Positions 7,570 through 31,934 of a stretch of DNA of 64,000 bases are shown one piece after another. Source of the stretch: Squalus acanthias (lineage: Eukaryota); NCBI GenBank assembly GCA_030390025.1, contig CM059432.1, positions 35,652,001 through 35,716,000 on the forward strand, written 5' to 3'. Within the stretch, counting starts at the first letter, position 1. Each line of letters starts with the position of its first letter. The notes below the pieces were generated by a model. The model made no database searches, was not told the origin of the DNA, and saw only the letters and a program-made list of their open reading frames with translations. The position numbers and the translations under genes are program-made.

Positions 7570-8545
7570 ACTCCAGCAACTTACCTTGCTGGCGGCAGCT
7601 TTGCCCAATTTTCAGGCTGACATCTAATGAGCTGCATCAAGATGTCTGTTTGGCACCCTGAATGAGGTGCCAAAATGGCAGGGGCTTCTTTGCTGCTGAA
7701 ACGGGATGCCAGCTCACGCGCTCCGCCAGTCAGCTACCAAAAAGTCAGTATCTATCCCAATCACTTTGCATCGAGGGTCCTGACTATATGGAACCTCCTG
7801 CCCAGGGAGGCAGGAGAAATAAATAGTGTTACAAATGTAAGAAGGAATTGGATAGATACTTAGCAGAGAAAGTGATTGAGGGGCATGAGACTTACCCCTA
7901 CATTTTCCATCACGTTCCACCTGATCTTATGGCAGCAACTGAGTGGGAAAATTCAAATCACACTTTTGCCAATTTTCCAATCCAGATCCTGCCCAAGTTT
8001 AAATACTAGGGTGTAGACTAGTGTATGAACTTTGGAGCCAGGTGACTGCGCATTAAGGATCCCTTCAGTCCTGTACATTTCTACTTTTCAATACACAAGA
8101 TCGGATTTCCATTTGGTATTCACACCAACCTTTTCTCTAGAATTATCAGCAAGGCAATTCCGATGCTTATATTGCTGAAACAAATACATCAGGTTTTGTG
8201 CTAGCTTGGCTCAGTTCCTGGCACATTTGTCTCTGGGTCAGTAGATTGTACAAGCCTCATCTCAGGAATTTGAGCTCATCATTAAGCTAACACTTTTGTG
8301 CAATGCTGAGGGAGTGCAGCACTGTTACAGGTGCCATCTCGTTAAACAGAGGTCCCCTGCCTGCCCAAGTGGGGATTCAAGAATACCATTTGAATAAGGG
8401 CAGATAATTCTGCCAGGGTCCTGGTCATTCTTACTCCTTCTACCAACAGTATCAAGGAACAGGTCCGTCGTCTCTCCCACCTACAGGCACAGCTAATGCT
8501 CCCATCTTACAGCTTTACTCTGCATCGAACCCGTGCTATACCTGC

Positions 8546-8754
8546 TGACGTAAGAAAACTACTAGGCACTTGGTCTAAGCTTTAAACAAAGCTTTAATCA
8601 ACTGTTTTTCAACATGGAGATCTAGTTGTGTCCTTCACTAGTTTCTGTTGTGGAATGTCCTAAGCAAGCTGGGCCCATGCCTGAGTATTTATACTCTCCT
8701 TGGCTAGCGCCACCAGCAGGCCGCCCAGTATTACTTCATATAAGATTCATGTCA
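8546..8754 (-). mobile_element. Solo LTR of a related, divergent Gypsy family inserted in a 67-bp repeat unit
   Basis: TG...CA ends, CCTGC TSD (8541-8545, 8755-8759); shares the TG(A/T)CGTAAGAA terminus, AAGCTTTAATCAACT and AGTATTTAT with the 194-bp LTR. Confidence 0.85.
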
Positions 8755-17642: not shown

Positions 17643-20270
17643 GGGTACGGTAGTAAAGTGGTTATGTTACTGGACTAGTAATCCAGAGGCCTGGACTAAA
17701 GATCCGGAGTCTTGTTCAAATCCCACCACAGCAGCTGAGGAATTTGAATTCAGTTAATTAAATAAATCTGGAATAAAAAGCTAGTATCATGAAACTACTA
17801 GGTTAGACCATCTGGTTCTTTAATGTCCTTACCTGGTCTAGCCTATATATGACTCCAGACTCTTAACTGCCCTCTAAAATGGTCTAGCAAGCCATTCAGT
17901 TGTACCAAACCGCTACCAGGCACCAGACACGACAAAGGCACACCAAGCCCAGTCGACCCTTCAAAGTCCTCCTCACTAACATCTGAGGACTTGTGCCAAA
18001 ATTGGGAGAGCTGTCTGACAGCCTGACATAGTCATACTCACAGAATCATACCTTTCAGCATACCCTCCTCCATCACCATTCCTGAGTATGTCCTGTCTAA
18101 CCGACAGGACAGACCCACCAGAGGTGACGGCACAATGATATACAGTTGGGAGGGAGTGGCCCGGGCATCCTCAACATTGATTGAAGTCTCATGGAGTTAA
18201 AAATGGCCATGGAAAGCTCCTGCTGATGACTACCTTCCTCAGCTGATGAATCAGTACTCCTCCATGTTGAACACCACTTGGAAGAAACCACTGAGGGTAG
18301 CAAGGGCACAGAATGTACTCTGGGTGGGGGACTTCAATGTCCATCTTGTGGCTCGGTAGTACCACTACTGACCAAGCTGGCCGAGTCCTAAAGGACATAG
18401 CTGCCAGACTGGGCCTGCGGCAGGTGGTGAGAGAACCAGCACGAGGAAAAAACCTACTTAACTTCGTCCTCACCAATCTACCTGTCACAGATGCTTCGGT
18501 CCATGACAGTATTGGTAAGAGTGACCACTGCACAATCCTTGTGGAGACGAAGTCCCATCTTCACACTGAGGACACTCTCCACCATGCTAAATGGGATAGA
18601 TTCAGAATAGAACTAGCAACTCAAAACTGGGCATCCAGCAGCAGCAGAATTGTATTCCACCACAATCTGTAACCTCATGGCCTGGCATATCCCTCACTCT
18701 ACCATTACCATCAAGCCAGGGGATCAACCCTGGTTCAATGAGGAGTGTAGAAGGGCATGCCAGGAGCAGCACCAGGCGTACCTAAAAATGAAGTGCCAAC
18801 CTGGTGAAGGTACAACACAGGACTACATACATGCTAAAAAGCGGAAGCAGCATGCTATAGACAGGGCTAAGTGATCCCACAACCATCGGATCAGATCGAA
18901 GCTTTGCAGTCCTGCCACATCCAGTCGTGAATGGTGGTGGACCATTAAACAAATAACGGGAGGAGGAAGCTCCATGAATATCCCCATCCTCAATGATGGT
19001 GGAGCCCAGCACATGATTGAAAAAGACAAAGCTGAAGTGTTTGCCACCATCTTCAGCCAGAAGTGCCGAGTGGATGATCCACATTGGCCTGCTCCTGCGG
19101 TCCCCACCATCACAGAAGCCAGTCTTCGGCCAATTCGATTCACTCCACGTGATATCAAGAAGCAGCTGAGCGCACTGGATACAGCAAAGGCGATGGGCCC
19201 CGACAATATCCCGGCTATCGTGCTGAAGACTTGTGCTCCAGAATTAGCCGTGTCTCTAGCCAAGCTGTTCCAGTACAGCTACAACACTGGTATCTATCCG
19301 ACAATGTGGAAAACTGCCCAGGTATGTCCTGTCCACAAAAAGCAGGACAAATCCAATCCGGCCAATTACTGCCCCATCAGTCTATCAGTCTACTCTCAAT
19401 CATCAGCAAAGTGATGGAGGGGGTCATCAACGGTGCTATCAAGCCGCACTTACTCACGAATAACCTGCTCACTGATGCCCAGTTTGGGTTACGCCAAGAC
19501 CACTCGGCTCCCGACCTCATTACAGCCTTGTTCCAAACATGGACAAAAGAGCTGAATTCCAGTGGTGAGATGAGAGTGACTGCCCTTGATGTCAAGGCAG
19601 CATTTGACCAAGTTTGGTATCAAAGAGCCCCAGTAAAATTGAAGTCAGTGGGAATCAGGGGGAAAACTCTCCACTGGCTGGAGTCATACCTAGCACAAAG
19701 AAAGATGGTTGTGGTTGTTGGAGGCCAATCATCTCAGCTGCAGGAGTTCCTCAGGACAGTGACCTAGGCCCAACCATCTTCAGCTGCTTCATCAATGACC
19801 TTCCTTTCATCATAGGGTCAGAAGTGGGGATGTTCATTGATGATTGCACATTCCATTCGCAACTCTTTAGATATTGAAGCAGTCCGTGCCCGCATGCAGC
19901 AAGACCTGAACGACATTCAGGCTTGGGCTGCTAAGTGGCAAGTAACATTCATGCCACACAAGTGCCAGGCAATGACTATCTCCAACAAGAGAGAGTCTAG
20001 CCACCACCCCTTGACATTCAGCCAAGGCTTATTCGACAGCACCTCCCAAACCCGCAACCTCTACCACCTAGAAGGACAAGGGCAGCAGGCGCACGGGAGC
20101 ACCATCACCGCCAAGTTCCCTTCCAAGTCACAAACCATCCTGACTTGGAAATATATCGCTGTTCCTTCATCGTTGTTGGGTCAAAATCCTGGAATTCCCT
20201 CCTTAACAGCACTGTGGGAGTACCTTCACCACATGGACTCACCACCACCTTCTGAAGGGCTTTTGGGATA
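17643..20270 (+). mobile_element. Degenerate CR1/L2-group LINE (APE + RT) with tRNA-like 5' head
   Basis: A/B-box-like head; PDIVILTES, GDFN, SDH endonuclease motifs; KAMGPDNIP, QFG, ALDVKAAFD, FINDLP, FIDD RT motifs; frameshifted. Confidence 0.85.
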
Positions 20271-20274
20271 AACA

Positions 20275-21070
20275 ACAACAACAACTTGTATTTTTATAGC
20301 GCCTTTAACATATTAAAATGTCCCAAGGCACTTCACAGGAGTGTTATAAAGAAAAAGAAAGACTTGTATTTATATAGCTCCTTTCACGACCATCAGACAT
20401 CTCAAAGCGCTTTGCAGTCAAAGAAGCACTTTTAGAGTGTAGTCACTGTTGTAATGTAGAAAATGTATAAGACAAAAATTTGACACCGAGGCACATAAGG
20501 AGAAATTAGGGCAGATGACCAAAAGCTTGGGGCAAGGCCATGGAGAGATTTGAAAACAAGGATGAGAATTTTAAAATTGAGGCGTTGCTTAACCGGGAGC
20601 CAATGTAGGTCAGCGAGCACAGGGGTGATGGGTGAACGGGACTTGGTGCGAGTTAGCACACGGGCAGCCAAGTTTTGGATGACCTCAAGTTTACGTAGGG
20701 TAGAGTGTGGGAGGCCAGCCAGGAGTGCGTTGGAATAGTCAAGTCTGGAGGTAACAAAGGCATAGATGAGGGTTTCAGCAGCAGATGAGCTGAGGCAGGG
20801 GCGGAGGCGGGCAATGTTACGGAGGTGGAAATAGGCGGTCTTAGTTATTCTGCGGTTATGTGGTCGGAAGCTCAATTTGGGGTCAAATATGACACCAAGG
20901 CTGCAAACAGTCTGGTTCAGCTTCAGACAGATGCTAGGGAGAGGGATGGAGTCGGTGGCTAGGGAACGGAGTTTGTGGTGGGGACCGAAAACAGTGGCTT
21001 TGGTCTTCCCAATATTTAATTGGAGAAAATTTCTGCTCATCCAGTATTGGATGTCGGACAAGCAGTCTGA
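20275..21070 (-). mobile_element. L2 LINE fragment (with small SINE tail insert near 20355-20460)
   Basis: ORF 20432-21115 WMSRNFLQLNIGKT...LGVIFD...AFVTSRLDYSN...LHWLPV. Confidence 0.88.
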
Positions 21071-22127
21071 CCGTTTCTGGGCAATAAATGCTGGCTTTGC
21101 CAGCGACGCCCACATCCTATGAACAAATCTAAAAATAAAAACAGGATGGTAGAAGGCGAACTAGATGGACGTGGTCTTTTTTCAGTTAGTAATTCCTATG
21201 TTTGCAATTAAATCTAATGACTCTGGTCAATTAACAGTTCAACCTTCAGACCTAGTGGAGTTCTTGTTGCCAAACTGTCTAGTCTGAACCGTTGGCTTTT
21301 CTCTTGAAAAATGTTTTGTGTGACTTTTGGTATTTGTTCTTAGGATATGGGCCACGCTGGCAAGGATGCATTTATTGCCCATCCCTAGTTGCCCTAATAG
21401 GTGGTGGTAGACCTTCTCCTTGAACCTCTGCAGTCCTTGTGGTGATGGTGCTCCCACAATAGTGTTAGGTAGGGATTATCAAGATTTTGACCCAGCGACG
21501 TTGAAGGAACAGCAATATAGGTCCAAGTCAGAAAGATGTGTGGCTTTTTGGGAACCTGATGTGGCTGCTGTTCTCGTGATTTTGCGGCTCTTGTCCTTCT
21601 TGGTGCTAGATGTCATGCAGCTGGGAGGTGCTGTCACAGTAAGCTTGTTGAGTTGCCGATTGCATCCTCTAGATCGGACATTATGCAGCCACATTATGCA
21701 GTCCAGTGGAAAGGGCACCGATCAAGTTAAAAACCCAAAGCAAGCAAAAAGTAACCTTTTGTCGCAGTGCTGTTCAAGATTAGGAAACCGATTAATAAAA
21801 TCAATCCAATTAAATATTTCATCATACGCAAGGGTTCAAATCCCACGAAACCCAAGTTAAAACTTAGGGAGATAGAAGTAAGAAGGGAAGGCCATTGATG
21901 TAGACTGTATAAATGGATTTATACAGGTTTACGCAGCTTAGCTCAAGACATCCATTTGGACAGTTCCTCTAAGGAACTTAGATGTCATCTCCAGATGCTG
22001 ACTAGGTGGCAAGAGCAAGTTCCAAGAGTAGCCAATGCCTATTTAATGACAGATCCAACAATCCAGTCCCCTGGTTTTGACCTTCAACTCCATCTGTGGG
22101 TAAAGCTCAATTACTTCAGATGGGGAA

Positions 22128-22321
22128 TGTCGTAAGAATGAGCCTTACACGTGGTGAACTTAAAGTAAGCTTTAATCAACTAAAAAGGTGCTACATACAA
22201 AAGAGGTCTTACTCTATGCCTCTCCAGGATCCAACTAATCAGCCCAGTATTTATCCTGGACTAATCACAGGAAGTGATGCAATAAAGTTCGAGTCACAGG
22301 AAGCTGTATTGTGTTACCACA
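22128..22321 (-). repeat. 3' LTR
   Basis: 194 bp, identical to 26414-26607 by manual comparison. Confidence 0.96.
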
Positions 22322-22333
22322 TTCTCCCCCCCC
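22322..22333 (-). other. Polypurine tract (GGGGGGGGAGAA)
   Basis: Purine run directly abutting the 3' LTR. Confidence 0.85.
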
Positions 22334-22384
22334 AAAAGATTAGGAGGCCGGGATGAAGTTCGAGTCACAGGAAGCTGTATTGTG

Positions 22385-25300
22385 TTACCACATTCTCCCT
22401 CCATTTCGTAGCCGCTGGACGAGGGAGAGCCGCACCCGTTTGGGTTCTCGTAGCGGTAGAGGGCCCCTAGCCCGTTTACCCACCGCGGGCCGTGGACCAG
22501 AGTCCGAGTGATCCAGCCCGCTCTGTGAGGGGTCAGGACGATCCTGACTGTGTACTGGTGCCCGAACGGGTGTCGGGCAGGGCTGTGGCAGATCCGTTTC
22601 CGAGCGTACGGTACGGGGTGGATCGTGGCTGCGCGTGCGAGCCCCGACGGGCTCATAGTCAGTCTGCCCCAGGTCGGCACGCTGGAGTGAGGTACCAGCC
22701 GGCGTCAGATCCAGATCGTGATGAGAGGCACCTGGCGAGCCCAGAGATGTGCCTGGTACAATATCATCCCCTGGTGTCCCTCTATGTTTCGGCGGGCAGG
22801 GAGCCAGATCCCGCAATGACACGGTAGATTCCCGACCGTCAGGATACCGAATATAGGCGTAGGTAGGGTTGACGTCAGTGAGCTCAACCTCATCTACCAG
22901 GGGGTCATTCTTAGACGCCCGAACATATCTTCGGAGTAGCACTGGTCCCGGTGCAGTCAGCCACGACGGGAGAGATATCCCATAGGATGAGCGACGCTGA
23001 AATCGGAAGAACCGTTCATGAGGCGTCGTATTTGTGGCGGTCGAAAGGAGGGACCGTGTGGAGTGTAATGCGTCTGGAAGTACTGCTTCCCATTGCTGGT
23101 TGGGTAGGCCCCGAGATCTCAAAGCCAGACGTACCGCATTCCAGATGATAGCGTTAAAACGCTCGACTTGCCCATTCCCGACCGGATGATAAGGCGTCGT
23201 TCTGCTGGCAGCAATACCCCGTTCCGAGAGATAGGCCTTGAGTTCTCCTGACATAAAAGAAGGGCCCTGATCCGAATGAACATAGGATGCCATGCCACAG
23301 AAAGCAAATACCTGCTCAAGGCAGCTGATAACCGTGGTCGTCAGCATATTGGGGCAGGGAAAGGCAAACGGAAAACGGGAATACTCATCGACCATGGTCA
23401 ATAGATAAGTGTTGCGAGTTGAAGAGGGCAACGGCCCCTTAAAATCGATGCTAAGCCGTTGCATTGGCTGGGTCGCATGTATGAGTATACCACCCGAGGG
23501 GCGGAAAAACTGAGGTTTCAATTCCGCACAGACTCTGCAGTCCGAGCACATCTTCTTTACATCCCCGGTAGAGAATGGGAGATTTCGGGACCGCACGAAG
23601 TGTAGCATGCGAGTAACGCCCGGATGACACAACCCATCATGGATGTCTACGAGCGTAGAGGGTGCCATGGCGGAGCAGAATGCTCGTGTGAGGGTATCCG
23701 GAGCCACATTCTCCTTGCCAGGTCGATAGTGGATGGTGTAACCAAAAGAGGCCAATTCCAGCCGCCAAAGCTGGATTTTATTATTTTTAATTTTGGTCCG
23801 TTTTCGATTATCGAGCATGAAGGCGACCGATCGCTGGTCCGTGATTAAGGTAAAGTGCTGGCGAGCTAGGAGATGAGTCCACTTCCGTACTGCCTCTATG
23901 ATGGCTGTAGCTTCTTTCTCGACTGGAGGATAATGTAGCTCAGCCCCTTGAAAAGTCCTGGACAAAAATGCCACCGGACGACCTTCCTGATTCAGAGTGG
24001 CCGAGATCGCCACCTCCGAGGCATCACACTCAACAACAAAAGGAAGACTCTCATCGATGGAGTGAAGAGCCGCTTTCTCCAACTGTTTTTTCAGGAGGTT
24101 AAAGGCTGCAACAGCCGCTGTGTCTAGTGGGAATGTGCTGGCCTTCAGTAGAGGTTGGATTCGGTCCGAGAAGTTAGGAATCCATTTAGCATAGTATGCA
24201 AACAGGCCGAGGGCCCGGCGCAAGGAGGCCGGATTCTTAGGTGGCGGGAGTTCTTGGAGTGGGCGAAGCCTTTCAGGGTCAGGTTTAATGATGCCATTGC
24301 CCACACAATAGCCAAGGATGTTGATGGTTGGTTGTGACTCAATGGATTTAGCCGCATTTAATGTCAAATTACGGTGCTGGAGTGCATCCCAAAATCGTTG
24401 GAGATTGGCGTCATGTTCCCGCTGATTGCGACCTGCGACAGTAATATTGTCCAGATAAGGAAACGTATCCTTTAAGTCTTCCTGTTTGACCAGGTCATCC
24501 ATTGCTCGCTGGAAGACAGCCACTCCATTAGTGACCCCAAAGGGGAGGCGACGAAATTGATACAGCCGTCCATTGGCTTCAAAGGCCGTATACTGCTTGT
24601 CTGAGACCTTCAAGGGTACCTGATGATAGGCACTTTTCAGATCATATGTTGAGAACACCGTGTACTCAGCCAGTTTATTAACCATATCATCGATGCGCGG
24701 CAATGGGTATGCGTCCAAGTCCGTATATTGATTGATGGTCTGTGAATAGTCAATGCACAGCCGTTTCTTGTGAGGTTGTAGAGGGTTCTTAACAATAACG
24801 ACCTGGGCGCGCCATGGCGACGAACAAGGCTCGATGATATCCTCTGCTAAAAGCCGAGAAATCTCAGCCGCAATAAAAGACTGGTCTTCCTGACTGAAAC
24901 GTCGTGACTGTGTTATAATCGGTTTGCATCGAGGAGGGATACTGGTAAACAGTGAGGGTTCATCCAGTGAAGCTGCTGACAATGCACAGAACGGTAATCG
25001 AGGTCGTATATTAGAAATAGTGAGTTCAGGTTTGGATCCGCCGAACTCAATGGTGAGCTTCTTATGCTGCTTTTGAAAATCTAGCCCTAAGATAAGATCA
25101 CTACATAAGTCCTTGAGCACCGAAAGCCGGGTGGAGGGATACCTGTGACCATTAAGTGTTATTTCAACCATACAAAAGCCAGAAATTCTGGTATTAAGTG
25201 ATGACTGAGCCATCGCAATTGCCTGGTCCGATGGGAAAACATGTAGCTTTAACTCTGCAACAATCTGTTCCCTAATGAAACTATCAGTGCTACCTGAGTC

Positions 25301-26335
25301 AATTAAGGCATCTAAAGTATGTCCATTAATTGATGCTTTTGTAGCTGCATGGAATAGGTTCTGAGGACAAGCAGCTGTAATTGGTGTCGTTGCACAAAGA
25401 GTGGCTGAAACTCTAGGTGTGTTTCTTCGAGAGAAAACCCGAGAGGAAGCACGATAGATTTTAGCCGGAACATCTTGATAGGCCCTTACCGGGGCAGTTC
25501 GGTAGGACTTAGCTTGATAAGCCCTCGTAGAGGCTCTTGATAGGCAAACCTTTGCAAAATGACCCTTTTTGTTGCAATGACTGCAAAACGCATTGCGAGC
25601 AGGGCAGAATTTCCGAGGGTGAAACTCATCACCACAAAAGAAGCATTTCTTAGATTGCCAAGAGGCTGCCACAGTGGGGTCATCATCCTCTTCATCAGTG
25701 AAGTCATCAGATTGATCGTCAGGGATAAAGTCCTCCCTAATAGAGTTCACCTGTGGCCTCTTAAATTGCCTGACTGTAGTTAAGGCAGCAGACCGAGGTC
25801 TGGGCACTGTATAAAGGTCTGCATTTCTTTTTGCCAGATCAAGAGAGCAAGCCATGTCATAAGCTCTCTGAAGCTCAAGTGTCTTACTTTCCAGTAGACG
25901 CTGGCGTATAAATGGGGAGGCAAGCCCGCAGATGAAAGCATCACGGATCATTTCTTCACGGTACAGCTCAGCTGAGGCCGCCTGAAAGTTACAGTCCATA
26001 CTAAGTCTGCGAAGCTCTTGGAGGAATTTATCAATGGATTCCTCCGGCCCTTGTTGGGCTGTAGCTAGTAGATGTCTGGCATAGACCTCATTCGGTGTCT
26101 TAGTATATAGTCTTTTAAGCGTCCGAATTGCCTCCTCGTAACTGCCCCATTCCTCGACATACTGAAATACATTCGGGGTGACACAGTTGATGAGTATCCG
26201 CAATTTTGAGTCATCATCAGCCTTGCAATATTCGAGAAAATTGTCAAACGTGCGATACCAGTGTTTCCACACCTTACCGGCTGCTGGGGTGTTTGGGTCC
26301 AAGTCAAGACGCGATGGTTTAAGGATGTTTTCCAT
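22385..26335 (-). CDS. Gag-Pol polyprotein, 1316 aa
   Basis: Two CX2CX4HX4C knuckles, protease LIDSGS, RT (YDLKSAYHQ, LPFG, YLDN), RNase H (ECDAS), integrase HHCC and D-D-E (SIDFKGP, HSDQG, GQVERFN); no stops or frameshifts. Confidence 0.96.
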   Translation of the reverse strand: MENILKPSRLDLDPNTPAAGKVWKHWYRTFDNFLEYCKADDDSKLRILINCVTPNVFQYVEEWGSYEEAIRTLKRLYTKTPNEVYARHLLATAQQGPEESIDKFLQELRRLSMDCNFQAASAELYREEMIRDAFICGLASPFIRQRLLESKTLELQRAYDMACSLDLAKRNADLYTVPRPRSAALTTVRQFKRPQVNSIREDFIPDDQSDDFTDEEDDDPTVAASWQSKKCFFCGDEFHPRKFCPARNAFCSHCNKKGHFAKVCLSRASTRAYQAKSYRTAPVRAYQDVPAKIYRASSRVFSRRNTPRVSATLCATTPITAACPQNLFHAATKASINGHTLDALIDSGSTDSFIREQIVAELKLHVFPSDQAIAMAQSSLNTRISGFCMVEITLNGHRYPSTRLSVLKDLCSDLILGLDFQKQHKKLTIEFGGSKPELTISNIRPRLPFCALSAASLDEPSLFTSIPPRCKPIITQSRRFSQEDQSFIAAEISRLLAEDIIEPCSSPWRAQVVIVKNPLQPHKKRLCIDYSQTINQYTDLDAYPLPRIDDMVNKLAEYTVFSTYDLKSAYHQVPLKVSDKQYTAFEANGRLYQFRRLPFGVTNGVAVFQRAMDDLVKQEDLKDTFPYLDNITVAGRNQREHDANLQRFWDALQHRNLTLNAAKSIESQPTINILGYCVGNGIIKPDPERLRPLQELPPPKNPASLRRALGLFAYYAKWIPNFSDRIQPLLKASTFPLDTAAVAAFNLLKKQLEKAALHSIDESLPFVVECDASEVAISATLNQEGRPVAFLSRTFQGAELHYPPVEKEATAIIEAVRKWTHLLARQHFTLITDQRSVAFMLDNRKRTKIKNNKIQLWRLELASFGYTIHYRPGKENVAPDTLTRAFCSAMAPSTLVDIHDGLCHPGVTRMLHFVRSRNLPFSTGDVKKMCSDCRVCAELKPQFFRPSGGILIHATQPMQRLSIDFKGPLPSSTRNTYLLTMVDEYSRFPFAFPCPNMLTTTVISCLEQVFAFCGMASYVHSDQGPSFMSGELKAYLSERGIAASRTTPYHPVGNGQVERFNAIIWNAVRLALRSRGLPNQQWEAVLPDALHSTRSLLSTATNTTPHERFFRFQRRSSYGISLPSWLTAPGPVLLRRYVRASKNDPLVDEVELTDVNPTYAYIRYPDGRESTVSLRDLAPCPPKHRGTPGDDIVPGTSLGSPGASHHDLDLTPAGTSLQRADLGQTDYEPVGARTRSHDPPRTVRSETDLPQPCPTPVRAPVHSQDRPDPSQSGLDHSDSGPRPAVGKRARGPLPLREPKRVRLSLVQRLRNGGRMW

Positions 26336-26413
26336 GATGGGTGATTCCCTGGATCCTTAGTTCCGAGTTCGTCCAAAAAGTTTGAGTGCGAAGTTTTTCA
26401 AAGTTGATTAAAT

Positions 26414-26607
26414 TGTCGTAAGAATGAGCCTTACACGTGGTGAACTTAAAGTAAGCTTTAATCAACTAAAAAGGTGCTACATACAAAAGAGGTCTTACTC
26501 TATGCCTCTCCAGGATCCAACTAATCAGCCCAGTATTTATCCTGGACTAATCACAGGAAGTGATGCAATAAAGTTCGAGTCACAGGAAGCTGTATTGTGT
26601 TACCACA
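26414..26607 (-). repeat. 5' LTR
   Basis: TGTGGTAAC...TTACGACA in element sense; TATA-like GATAAATA and ATTAAA inside. Confidence 0.96.
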
Positions 26608-26691
26608 GGGAATGATCAGATGTGCCGCAGATGACTATAAGTGGGGCCTTCGTGACTGCTCCCTTTGGGGTTGGAGTTAGAAGATGTAGGC

Positions 26692-26885
26692 TGTGGTAAC
26701 ACAATACAGCTTCCTGTGACTCGAACTTTATTGCATCACTTCCTGTGATTAGTCCAGGATAAATACTGGACTGATCAGTTGGATCCTGGAGAGGCATAGA
26801 GTAAGACCTCTTTTGTATGTAGCACCTTTTTAGTTGATTAAAGCTTACTTTAAGTTCACCACACGTAAGGCTCATTCTTACGACA
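26692..26885 (+). mobile_element. Solo LTR of the same Gypsy family, opposite orientation
   Basis: 194 bp, 4 substitutions versus the paired LTRs, own TAGGC TSD (26687-26691, 26886-26890). Confidence 0.95.
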
Positions 26886-27203
26886 TAGGCCACGTACTGG
26901 GCTACACCCATTGGCAAGGGCTTACTGGTTCCCTAATGGACATGCACAATGTCATTTACTCAGCTATTAAATGGTTACAACACATAGACTGACACGCTTG
27001 ACATGACAATCTATGTAAATGCAATGTTTTTGGAGCGGGAAGCATATGGTGAGAAGCCAGCTAGTTGTGATTGAAATTTATGAGAAAGGGATGGGCTTGT
27101 TGCGCTTAATGGTCTGCTCATGTTGCTAAAAATGACCTTGTGATTATGGAAGAAGACCCTTAAGACTCACTCTCTGTTTGTTTCCCCTCCCCTCCACCGC
27201 TAG

Positions 27204-27992: not shown

Positions 27993-28034
27993 TTGGTTAA
28001 TCTTAACTCTGAAATCACAGCAGTACTTCAGAGA

Positions 28035-28415
28035 AAGAACTTGAATTTATCTTGTGTCTTTCATAGCCTCAGGACGTCCCAAAGTGGTTCACAGCCAATG
28101 AAGTTCTTCTGAAATTACTGTTGTAATGTAGGAAACGCAGCAGTTAATTTGCGTATAGCAAGGTCCCACGAAATGAGATACATGACCAAAATTTTCTTTT
28201 AAGTGTTGGTCGAGGGATAAATATTGGCCAGGACACTGGTAGAACCCTGCTCATCTTTGAATAATGCCCTGAGATCTTTTATGTCCACCTGAGAGGACAG
28301 ACAGGGCCTCAGTTTAACATGTCATCCAAAGACAGCACCTCTGACAGTGCAGCACTCCCTCAGTGCTGCACTGGAGTGTCGGCCTGGATCATGTGCTCAA
28401 GTCTCTAGGGTGGGT
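28035..28415 (-). mobile_element. Deu-domain SINE
   Basis: Homologous to 9985-10426. Confidence 0.75.
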
Positions 28416-28609
28416 TTCAACTCTCCTCAAGAGTGAGTAACTTCTATACCCCAAAATTGCAAGACTTCACTGTGACAGGGAGTATCAATCGATGGGAACA
28501 CAGGTTGGAAAATTTGGCTTTGAGCGTGTCCAACTCGTGCCATTCCTGATTTTTCCTGCTATTTATTTCAGGACTATATGTACACAGGTGACTCCTAACA
28601 CACAACTAA

Positions 28610-28807
<198 letters not shown>

Positions 28808-29462
28808 TAGTGCCTTTCAAGACCTCAGGATGTCCCAAATCACTTGACAGCCAATGAAGTACTTTTGAAGTGTAGTCACTGTTGTAATGTAGGAAACGCA
28901 GCAGCCAATTTTACTTAGCTTCAGTTTAAGCTTATTCAGGTCACAGACTTGTTCTAGCTGTAGATCCTCATCACTCCACTCTGTCATCCTCTCCACGCTA
29001 GTCCTCCAGACTATCCACAGAAGCAAAGAGGAGAGAATCACCAAGACAATTAAGCTGTTAGATTGTCGTAAAAGTGCAACTGGTTCACTAATTCTTTTAG
29101 GAAAGGAAATCTGCCATGTTTACCCGGTCTCATCTATATGTGACTCCGATTTAACACCAATGTGACTCCATATTGCCCTCTGAAGTGGTCTAGCAAGATC
29201 CTCAGTATATCAAACCGCTACAAAGATGTCTAATGGCATTGTGGGAGCACCTTCACCATGTGCACTGGAACGGTTCAAGTAGAAGGCCCGCCACTTTATC
29301 GAGGGCAATTGGGGATGGGTAATAAATATGAGTTATGCCAGAAATGCCCACATCCTGAGAATTAATAAAAAAAAGACATTTTGTGTTTTATCGGATGCAT
29401 GTGTCAAGCACACAGCAGCGGAGTGGATCCCAAACTGACTGATTCTTTTTGGTTCTCCGCAG

Positions 29463-29583
29463 GTACTGATCATGTGAGAAGTCAACCGGACTCTCTACCG
29501 CTGGCAGTGGCAAAGGAAGCGAAAGTGAGCGAGTTGGAAGATGATCAGCTTGGAGACGAAGACCTCGTTTTCCTTAATAACCA
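29463..29583 (+). CDS. NBEAL2: NBEAL2 exon 9 (SLPLAVAKEAKVSELEDDQL...)
   Basis: cgcAG / GTAAGT, phase 1-2. Confidence 0.88.
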
Positions 29584-30032
29584 GTAAGTGTTTGGTCAAT
29601 GAAACAGCCAGTGTTTAAAGGGGCCTCAACGACAGTGCCAGATACTAATCTAGAGTCTGCCCTACGATGATACCCAACCACAACAAGCCACTGTATTAAC
29701 AGGTTTACCAAAGTTTAAAATAGTCAGCAGATGTTCTTGGTGGCTTTTGAATTCTTATTATTTAATTTGGACTGTGAGCACAGAACTAGAAGACATGACT
29801 ATAAAACTAACGGGGCTGAAGCATGACTTGAGATTGGAAAAACCTTTTTGTTTCTTGCAGAGTAGCAGATAAAACAATTGATGCTGTGTTAAATTTAAGA
29901 AACAGAACAGGCTGAATATCTGATTCAGAACAAGATCTGAGGGTCATAAGAATAAGGACAGATAGATCGAACACAGTGTGGAACTTGATGGTTCCTGAGT
30001 TGATGCATCCAATGTCATGCAAGGGATTTAAA

Positions 30033-30450
30033 AGAAAGACTGCAGTTATATAGTGCCTATTATGACCTCAGGACTTCCCAAAGTGCTTAACAGCCAGTAA
30101 GATACTTTGAAGTGTAGTCACCATTGTAATGTAGGAAACACGGCAGCCAATTTACGCACAGCAAGGACCTATAAACAGCAATGAAATAATGACCAGATAA
30201 TCTGTTTTTTAATGATGTTGGTTGAAGGATAAATATTGGCTAGGACCCCGAGGAAAACTCCCCAGCTCTTCTTCGAAATGGTGTCCTGGAATTTTTTACG
30301 TCCACATGTGAGAACAAATGGGGCCTTGGTTTGACGTTTCATCCAAAAGACGGCACCTCCAACAGTGTAGTACTTCCTCAGCACTGGATTCTGTCCAGTG
30401 GACAGAAATGTCAGCCTGGATTCTGTGCTCAAGTCTCTTGAGTGGGACTT
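30033..30450 (-). mobile_element. Deu-domain SINE
   Basis: Homologous to 9985-10426. Confidence 0.75.
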
Positions 30451-31934
30451 TGTAAAGTATGTATGATATAGGGTGTGAGGTTGGATAGATATTCTGGAGA
30501 TTTGCTTGATCGAAATTCTAAGTAAAGGAAGGATTCGACCGGACGTTCCTGGTTCAATTCCTCCATCAACAAAATCTCCCACACAACTAATGTCCTTGAG
30601 CAAAGCACTCACCATAAGTGGACTCCAATCTATCAGCCTCTAAGTGGGCATGAGCATTGCTAGAAAGTCAACAGGAGTGAGGCAAGAATGACAAACCGCT
30701 CCATCACAAGGTTTACACGCTCTTGACCACAGGCCAGGAAAGAGGGATGGCCAGTTCCCCATGCTGGCCTTTGATCAAGGAGTGGCTGTTTTAAACTCTT
30801 GACCCTGTGTGTGGGGGGGTGGGGGGGAGGAAAGGGGGGCTTAAGGAGAACTTTTGCAAAATTTTCCCTCGCGATTAAGAGTGTTAGATTGGGTAGGTTT
30901 GTATGAAGGTGGTCATTCATAGGCCGACAGGACTTCAGCTTAACCTCTCACCTGAAACAGTTTGGGTTAGGAAAGATGGCACTCAATCAGGGGACAGAAC
31001 ATTTCTGATGTTCTTTTCTTGTTTTATACTTTCTTTATATGATTTTGTAAAGGTTGTAATAATAGACTAATGCTGCATTCCTTGTCTATGTACTAGTAAT
31101 CAGAGTCAAACACTTACACGTTTGTTAAGGGTTATATGAACATACATACTCACACCACGGCAGTTTGAGAATTTGAATTCCGTTTAAAAATCTGCAATTA
31201 AAAAGCTGGTAACATAAGAGTGACTATGAAGCTGTTAGATAGTCGTAAAATCCCAACTAGTTCATTATTGTTCTTTAGGGAAGGAAACCTGCCATTCCTA
31301 CTCTGTCTGGCCTATAGGTGACTTCAAGTTGACTCCTAACTACATCTGATGTGGCCTAGCAAACTACTTCACACCACCACTTTCTCAGGGCAATTAGGGA
31401 TGGCCAGTAAATCCTGGCCTTGCCAGCGATGCTCACGTCTTGAGAATGAATTTTTTTAAAAAGAAAGCACCCCAGAACACAAGGCGATGCTTAGCTGTAG
31501 AAGATCAAGTGTTAACAGTGGTTGAGCTCAATTTTCTAGATTCTTCCTTCTGCTTCATCTTCTAACCTCACATTACAATTTCACCGTTTCTATTTCTTTC
31601 TAACTATATTACTTCACATGATCTTGATGCACTTTACACCTGTTCTCTCCAGTCTTCATCAAGAAGTTCCAGGCTCTTTAAGCATCTATCACCCAAGGCT
31701 TTCGTTCTGACATCCACGCACCAGAAGGCCAGCAGAAACTACTGGTGTTTAGGGTTAGCGAGGTATAGAATGCACCATCGTGTTTCAACGACAGATTAAG
31801 TTATTTTCTAGGCGTGCAAAAACAGTGATAGAGTCCAGATCTAAATACAATTGATGTATAACCCGACCTCGACATCAGGCTGCTTGTGACCTATGTGAAG
31901 TTCTGCAGGTGTTTAACTTTAGGGTTTAGTATAA

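Follow-up and report, generated by a model that had tools for sequence, protein, structure and literature searches.

A complete LTR retrotransposon in the window (the whole 64,000-nucleotide stretch of Squalus acanthias DNA analysed here) carries, one base behind its 5′ LTR, an 11-nt sequence that is the exact complement of a segment of that same LTR. The pairing is conserved among the copies of the family, recurs at the same position in related elements and covaries between lineages. Judged from these comparisons and by analogy with the yeast element Tf1, it is likely that we are dealing with self-primed reverse transcription of the Tf1 kind in a Gypsy lineage that has no chromodomain.

The element occupies positions 22128..26607 of the minus strand (4,480 bp) and has the 5-bp target-site duplication TTCCC on both sides. 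Its features, in window positions, are:

26612..26608 and 22127..22123, target-site duplication TTCCC, matching flanks
26414..26607, minus strand, 5′ LTR of 194 nt with TG..CA ends
26534..26540, minus strand, TATA-like ATAAATA in U3, 67-73 nt upstream of the LTR arm
26457..26467, minus strand, LTR arm AGTTGATTAAA (LTR nt 141-151), putative self-primer segment; contains the poly(A)-type hexamer ATTAAA; next bases after the arm GC
26413..26456, minus strand, 44-nt loop between the arms, made up of the rest of R, U5 and the spacer A
26402..26412, minus strand, putative primer-binding site TTTAATCAACT, exact complement of the LTR arm
22388..26335, minus strand, single open gag-pol frame of 1,316 codons with its ATG at 26335; stop TAA at 22387..22385
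22322..22333, minus strand, polypurine tract GGGGGGGGAGAA, adjoining the 3′ LTR
22128..22321, minus strand, 3′ LTR of 194 nt, identical to the 5′ LTR at 194/194 positions
22171..22181, minus strand, copy of the LTR arm in the 3′ LTR, with no downstream partner; the hexamer would be unpaired there

The LTR ends, the duplication, the polypurine tract and the order of the coding domains all identify a Ty3/Gypsy (Metaviridae-type) element. Pfam places Asp_protease_2 at residues 333-420, RVT_1 at 523-676, RT_RNaseH at 762-864, Integrase_H2C2 at 894-941 and rve, the DDE core of the integrase, at 955-1051, that is, in the PR-RT-RNaseH-IN order of Gypsy. The Mag-like double zinc knuckles and the lack of an evident chromodomain, which had been noted from the sequence alone, both stand: two CCHC knuckles, CFFCGDEFHPRKFC and CSHCNKKGHFAKVC, can be seen in the translated Gag, and no chromodomain was found by Pfam in the 1,316 residues of the element at E ≤ 0.01.

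Some further details of the locus can be recorded here. A second copy of the polypurine tract, GGAGGGAGAA, together with the first 40 nt of the LTR, lies at 22353-22402 on the minus strand, 71 nt upstream of the true junction between polypurine tract and LTR, and the TAA stop of gag-pol falls inside this duplicated LTR start. On either side, at 18800-21900 and 28000-30500, the element is flanked by decayed reverse-transcriptase frames of LINE type and by repeated SINE-like pieces of 50-100 nt. A solo LTR of the same family, 98% identical, is found at 26692-26885 on the plus strand, head-to-head with the element and 82 nt upstream of it, and it includes the 11-mer of the LTR arm as well (26832-26842, plus strand). 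We considered whether this inverted neighbour could be part of a DIRS-like or fold-back architecture and rejected the idea, since the copy is a solo LTR in its own right, bounded by a TAGGC duplication at 26687-26691 and 26886-26890, which implies two independent insertions within 300 bp.

Read in element sense on the minus strand, the region behind the 5′ LTR runs ...CTCATTCTTACGACA, a single A, TTTAATCAACT and then TTGAAAAAC. The LTR itself ends in ...TTACGACA at 26414, the spacer A is position 26413, and the 11-mer extends from 26412 to 26402; its complement within the LTR occupies 26467..26457 and has ATTAAA as its last six bases. There is no TGG in the 14 nt that follow the LTR, so the CCA end of a tRNA cannot pair there. 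The re-reading of the minus strand thus agrees with the first-pass annotation on three points: an 11-mer that is the exact complement of an LTR segment begins one base from the U5 end in the absence of any TGG, the complementary segment overlaps the putative ATTAAA signal, and the TATA-like box at 26540..26534 lies at the noted distance from the LTR arm.

The simplest alternative is that such a match arose by chance in an AT-rich leader, where short matches are common, and nine of the 11 bases are indeed A or T. However, when the LTR was shuffled by mononucleotides, a complement of at least 11 nt starting 0-3 nt after the LTR was obtained in only 86 of 200,000 trials (about 4e-4), and among the 4,082 internal 11-mers of the element a single one, that at offset 1, has an exact reverse complement in the LTR. 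The helix is moreover kept with compensatory change in 23 of the 28 testable related loci described below, and we give chance next to no credence. When the 73 nt from arm to arm are folded alone, the predicted energy is -13.7 kcal/mol (z = -2.35) and the 11-bp helix closes the structure; the same helix persists in a context of 161 nt, for which the energy as a whole is unremarkable. We also looked for a small hairpin that would recur immediately behind the LTR arm and rejected it, the mean stem being 4.05 as against 3.72 in shuffled loops, which is not significant and no better than the shuffles.

Within the same genome, a query made of the LTR and the next 34 nt gave 147 candidate matches in the 3.7-Gb assembly, of which the 40 scored all covered the full query at 99-100% identity. 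Both 11-mers were unchanged in all 30 genomic copies that were fetched, among which other LTR positions are polymorphic. Given the identical LTRs, the target-site duplication, the open frame and the 99-100% identical copies with intact arms, the family has been active recently with the putative primer site as it stands. Near-identical sequence also occurs in the contig sets of runs X1-X15, which are labelled with five coded organisms (A-E) and hold 56-92% of the sampled 31-mers of the element; in the three runs whose contigs were examined for this (X1, X5 and X10) both arms are unchanged. The near-identical copies under five organism labels may reflect closely related species or a recent spread.

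A second, distinct family was found in the same genome by a search with a catshark-named relative (P0084). It is represented by loci L129-L148 on other contigs, shares 66-72% nucleotide identity with the window element and is abundant, with 22,934 first-look candidates; of the 51 matches scored, 31 lie in open frames of 1,315 codons. In 18 of the 20 loci fetched, this family has 13-nt arms, CAAGTTGATTAAA and TTTAATCAACTTG, with one A after the CA. In the window itself, a fragment or solo LTR of a related family is present at about 8545-8700 on the minus strand; its sequence, which includes TATAAATACTCAGGC and the same AGTTGATTAAAGC segment, is similar to the LTR that the second family has in L130.

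In order to look further afield, we collected relatives by protein search, which gave at least 1,303 at E ≤ 1e-10 among the candidates scored, with source names that include shrimp, sea louse, whipworm, soft coral, anemone, mussel, tunicate and catshark. The chromodomain PF00385 is found in none of the 120 relatives listed (precomputed Pfam). An alignment of 22 relatives (A1) was used to scan metagenome contigs and yielded 68 loci of 45-71% identity; the relatives tested, mostly metagenome contigs, are 45-69% identical in pol. LTR pairs could be defined in 15 loci, and in most of these the bases that start 0-2 nt past the 5′ LTR can pair without mismatch with a segment of the LTR located 40-70 nt before its end. 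The complementary letters differ between lineages while the position of the helix stays constant.

The same place was picked out by an annotation-blind scan for the longest exact inverted pair with a loop of 25-100 nt in the 350 nt before the gag start: an exact pair of 9-18 nt is present there in 23 of the 28 testable loci. In all 23 the 3′ arm begins 1-3 nt after the LTR-terminal CA (1-2 nt in nearly all), and the 5′ arm lies 24-68 nt upstream, inside the LTR, and ends in a motif of the TTAAA/ATAAA type, followed in most by GCC or ACC. No stem of 9 nt or more was found in the other five testable loci (L044, L047, L053, L095 and L070, the last a decayed copy). Loci L043 and L051 start too near a contig end for the scan, and the helix is visible by eye across their contig ends.

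On a MAFFT alignment of 22 sequences (A2), 90.3% of the cells of a 16-pair helix are paired as compared with 72.6% after shuffling, and none of 500 shuffles reaches the observed value, although the percentage is inflated because the 22 rows were picked for having a stem, a choice that leaves the swap control and the positional constancy unaffected. Both partners have changed in 12 of the 16 helix pairs of this alignment, with a covariation score of 0.49 against 0.157, and slid registers are paired at 24-47%. In the swap control, arms from the same element match over runs of 9-18 nt (mean 13.2), in stark contrast to arms taken from different lineages, for which the mean run is 2.35 nt and the maximum 8. 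The covariation between the 11-mer at the primer-site position and the 11-mer of the LTR, which the first-pass annotation had put forward as a check on its proposal, has therefore turned out strongly positive, and the comparison indicates that either selection or the mechanism itself preserves the pairing throughout a broad lineage of animal Gypsy elements that have no chromodomain. The leaders are also short. In L033, L035, L041, L046, L084 and L088 the 3′ arm starts 13-18 nt before the gag ATG, and in several lineages the whole leader consists of the arm and 2-5 nt, so that no other primer site fits.

These data also bear on the possibility that the site is bound by a host RNA, be it a tRNA half or internal tRNA fragment of the kind used by copia or another RNA, the LTR match being incidental; the partner would then be a host RNA ending in ...GUUGAUUAAA. 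The 11-nt core AGTTGATTAAA is common to the window element, the second family and loci L041, L062 and L080, which could hint at a conserved outside partner, and since the arms of the second family share this core, they do not count separately against a host RNA. The best match to the putative primer site among host tRNAs is 6 nt, a value drawn from 26 distinct sequences of only two isoacceptor types (Lys-TTT and Cys-GCA), obtained with ARAGORN on fetched loci from 63 scored of 369,166 RF00005 candidates in the element's own genome, a small sample that is far from the full tRNA set. However, the sequence has no TGG and thereby excludes a tRNA 3′ end, and at least 15 distinct arm pairs exist among the lineages, each matching its own LTR over 9-18 nt with 0 of 210 swaps reaching 9 nt. 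With a host primer there would be no need for the LTR to covary with the site, and we consider a host RNA very unlikely. All of the tRNA sequences recovered are Lys-TTT-like or Cys-GCA-like and often stand in arrays about 1.8 kb apart, which suggests amplified tRNA gene arrays or tRNA-derived repeats.

The self-priming reading proposed from the sequence of this single element is thus supported by the covariation in its relatives and by the presence of an arm at the primer-site position in every lineage. What the data show directly is the pairing with its position, its conservation and its covariation; cleavage, priming, the details of strand transfer and the transcript start are inferred. The 3′ arm is taken as the primer site because it adjoins U5, where minus-strand synthesis must begin. 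According to the self-priming reading, no tRNA would be used, and the 11-mer after U5 would be the primer-binding site of a young, compact element of Ty3/Gypsy type. In the genomic RNA, nucleotides 141-151 of the LTR, which would lie in R and end in AUUAAA, would fold back over the 44-nt loop and pair with the 11 nt that start one base after U5. If the analogy with Tf1 holds, the RT/RNase H of the element would cleave the RNA where the LTR arm ends on its 3′ side, directly behind ...UUAAA, to give a primer that is the element's own RNA ending in ...AGUUGAUUAAA-3′, and the freed 3′-OH would prime minus-strand DNA through U5. The loop contains a plausible poly(A) site, a CA and then GTGT, 16-19 nt after the ATTAAA (read by eye), and the short stretch from the cut to the poly(A) site could serve as the repeat for the first strand transfer. 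In the retroviral mechanism the primer is copied during plus-strand strong-stop synthesis. The same step would here copy the RNA primer, and the primer site would be rewritten from the primer in each cycle, which would explain why the complementarity is perfect, lineage-specific and sharply bounded.

Some of the contigs have ends that can be described alongside this scheme. In L051, a metagenome contig of 4,046 nt without overlap between its termini, the last base is the 3′-terminal base of the LTR arm and the first base is the one that opens the loop; in this single case the break may be an arbitrary one in an assembly with collapsed LTRs, or that of a molecule cut at the proposed cleavage site. 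L031, L043, L045, L058, L061 and L062 are contigs of about 2-4 kb that represent circular permutations of an element with one LTR, L058 having a terminal overlap of 123 nt. Such permutations are expected from an assembler that collapses the two LTRs, or from one-LTR circles.

Where the primer would sit relative to the start of the RNA is less certain, and the first-pass annotation had already cautioned that the LTR segment does not lie at the expected transcript start. Three related LTR families of this genome, namely those of the window element, the second family and the fragment at about 8545-8700, have kept a TATA-like box 66-82 nt ahead of the arm, and from its position the start would be expected some 35-50 nt before the arm, in which case the primer would have to be cut from inside R, unlike that of Tf1. 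Among the metagenome relatives, which are of invertebrate type, no conserved TATA was found at a fixed distance upstream of the arm. The complementarity in the relatives has sharp 5′ ends, as a primer starting at the cap would give. We regard the odds as roughly even between a primer made of the first bases of the RNA, at the cap, and one located inside R. Of the poly(A) RNA reads in X16, a raw-read run made on another coded organism, 0 mapped to the element, and runs available as contigs cannot show transcript ends.

The position of the hexamer raises the question of a second function. At the 5′ end of the RNA the poly(A) hexamer would be hidden in the helix, whereas the copy at the 3′ end would stay accessible, since the partner of the LTR arm exists solely downstream of the 5′ LTR; such a masking of the 5′ poly(A) signal is plausible, although it is not required by the self-priming reading. 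Of the 23 loci with a helix, 12 have a canonical AATAAA or ATTAAA at the arm end and two have one only in the loop, and the other nine lack a canonical hexamer in both arm and loop and carry variants of the GTTAAA type. The primer segment thus usually carries the poly(A) hexamer, and its link to polyadenylation is partial.

It could even be argued that the helix is purely structural, acting in poly(A) occlusion in the 5′ R, in packaging or in dimerisation, while something else primes. This would fit the arm ending in a canonical hexamer in those 12 loci and in a TTAAA-type variant in most others, the existence of a partner at the 5′ end only, and the conserved TATA-like box, which suggests that the hexamer lies well inside R, where suppression at the 5′ end is needed. 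Masking, however, needs no partner abutting U5, and yet the partner is found 1-3 nt after the CA in 23 of 23 loci; the few bases between arm and gag ATG in several lineages leave no alternative primer site; and the nine loci without a canonical hexamer in arm or loop still keep the helix. For these reasons we consider a purely structural role unlikely, and retain self-priming as the main function of the helix, at the strength given at the outset.

To our knowledge, self-priming has been established experimentally only for the Tf1-type elements of fission yeast and has been predicted for a few clades. It is described for Tf1, Tf2 and Tj1 and said to be implicated from fungi to vertebrates in the account of PMC4600332, and fungal chromoviruses are listed as self-priming in PMC6934838. 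In Tf1, as presented in PMC4600332 and PMC6317226, an 11-nt stretch adjoining U5 can pair with RNA derived from the LTR of the same element, and the primer is released from that RNA by cleavage; according to the same two sources there is experimental proof of this geometry for Tf1, and it has been proposed for Tj1, sushi, Tcn1 and the copia TAR elements. The element described here resembles Tf1/Tf2, Tj1 and the Tf1/sushi group in having no tRNA-type site and a site after U5 that is complementary to its own LTR, and the geometry matches, with an arm of 11 nt in Tf1, 11 nt here and 9-18 nt in the relatives. It differs in that Tf1/sushi elements are chromoviruses, whereas no chromodomain is present here and the Gypsy lineage is a different one (as judged from Pfam). 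Furthermore, the Tf1 primer consists of the first 11 nt of the RNA, whereas the arm here may lie 35-50 nt inside R, and, unlike in the Tf1 group, the arm contains or abuts a poly(A) hexamer.

For the plant copia TAR elements (Houba, Osr-1) and plant Tcn1, self-priming is predicted in PMC6317226 from complementarity between site and LTR, as it is here, but those elements belong to another superfamily or clade and to other hosts, and the account given there makes no link to a poly(A) hexamer. The half-tRNA sites of copia also lack a TGG and, as stated in PMC6317226, match a conserved tRNA, whereas the site here varies by lineage and tracks its own LTR. Skipper and SM-Tcn1 are without both types of site in the descriptions of PMC5006619 and PMC2864245. 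In the literature covered, which did not extend to the original SURL, Jule and early Tf1 accounts, we found no paper ascribing self-priming to elements of the Mag, SURL or Jule type, and an older statement may exist.

Elements of the Mag C clade have two CCHC knuckles in Gag, no chromodomain, short LTRs and a compact single frame, and SURL and Jule are known to combine a single gag-pol frame with a compact size of 4-5 kb. The window element shares these features, with its two CCHC knuckles, lack of a chromodomain, 194-nt LTRs and single frame. The LTRs of Mag C (SURL of sea urchins, Jule of Xiphophorus) have a mean length of 174 nt in Benachenhou et al. (PMC3601003), as compared with 155-236 nt here, and the end motifs given there, TGTNATRT and AYANAACA, match most of the LTRs of the present group, most relatives ending in ...AYANAACA and the second family in TGTCATAA. 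A wide metazoan host range, attributed to the Mag lineage in PMC6238403, is likewise common to the relatives found here. On LTR length, end motifs and these clade features, the lineage is probably Mag C/SURL-like.

The data could be read more broadly still, in that an entire and widespread metazoan Gypsy lineage without a chromodomain, Mag C-like and extending from cnidarians and molluscs to cartilaginous fish, would replicate without a host tRNA, with a primer that is cut inside R and contains the poly(A) hexamer, so that one helix both primes and silences 5′ polyadenylation. We put this combined proposal forward tentatively, as a possibility that we think rather less probable than its failing in at least one part. 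If a large animal Gypsy lineage does self-prime, annotation tools would greatly underestimate how common tRNA-independent priming is in animals, such elements would be overlooked or wrongly labelled by LTR finders that insist on a tRNA site, and host defences based on tRNA fragments, which act against LTR elements, would not touch them. The overlap between primer and hexamer would explain in a simple and testable way why the 5′ poly(A) signal of an element with 194-nt LTRs is ignored, and the dozens of lineages with natural compensatory variants provide a comparison set.
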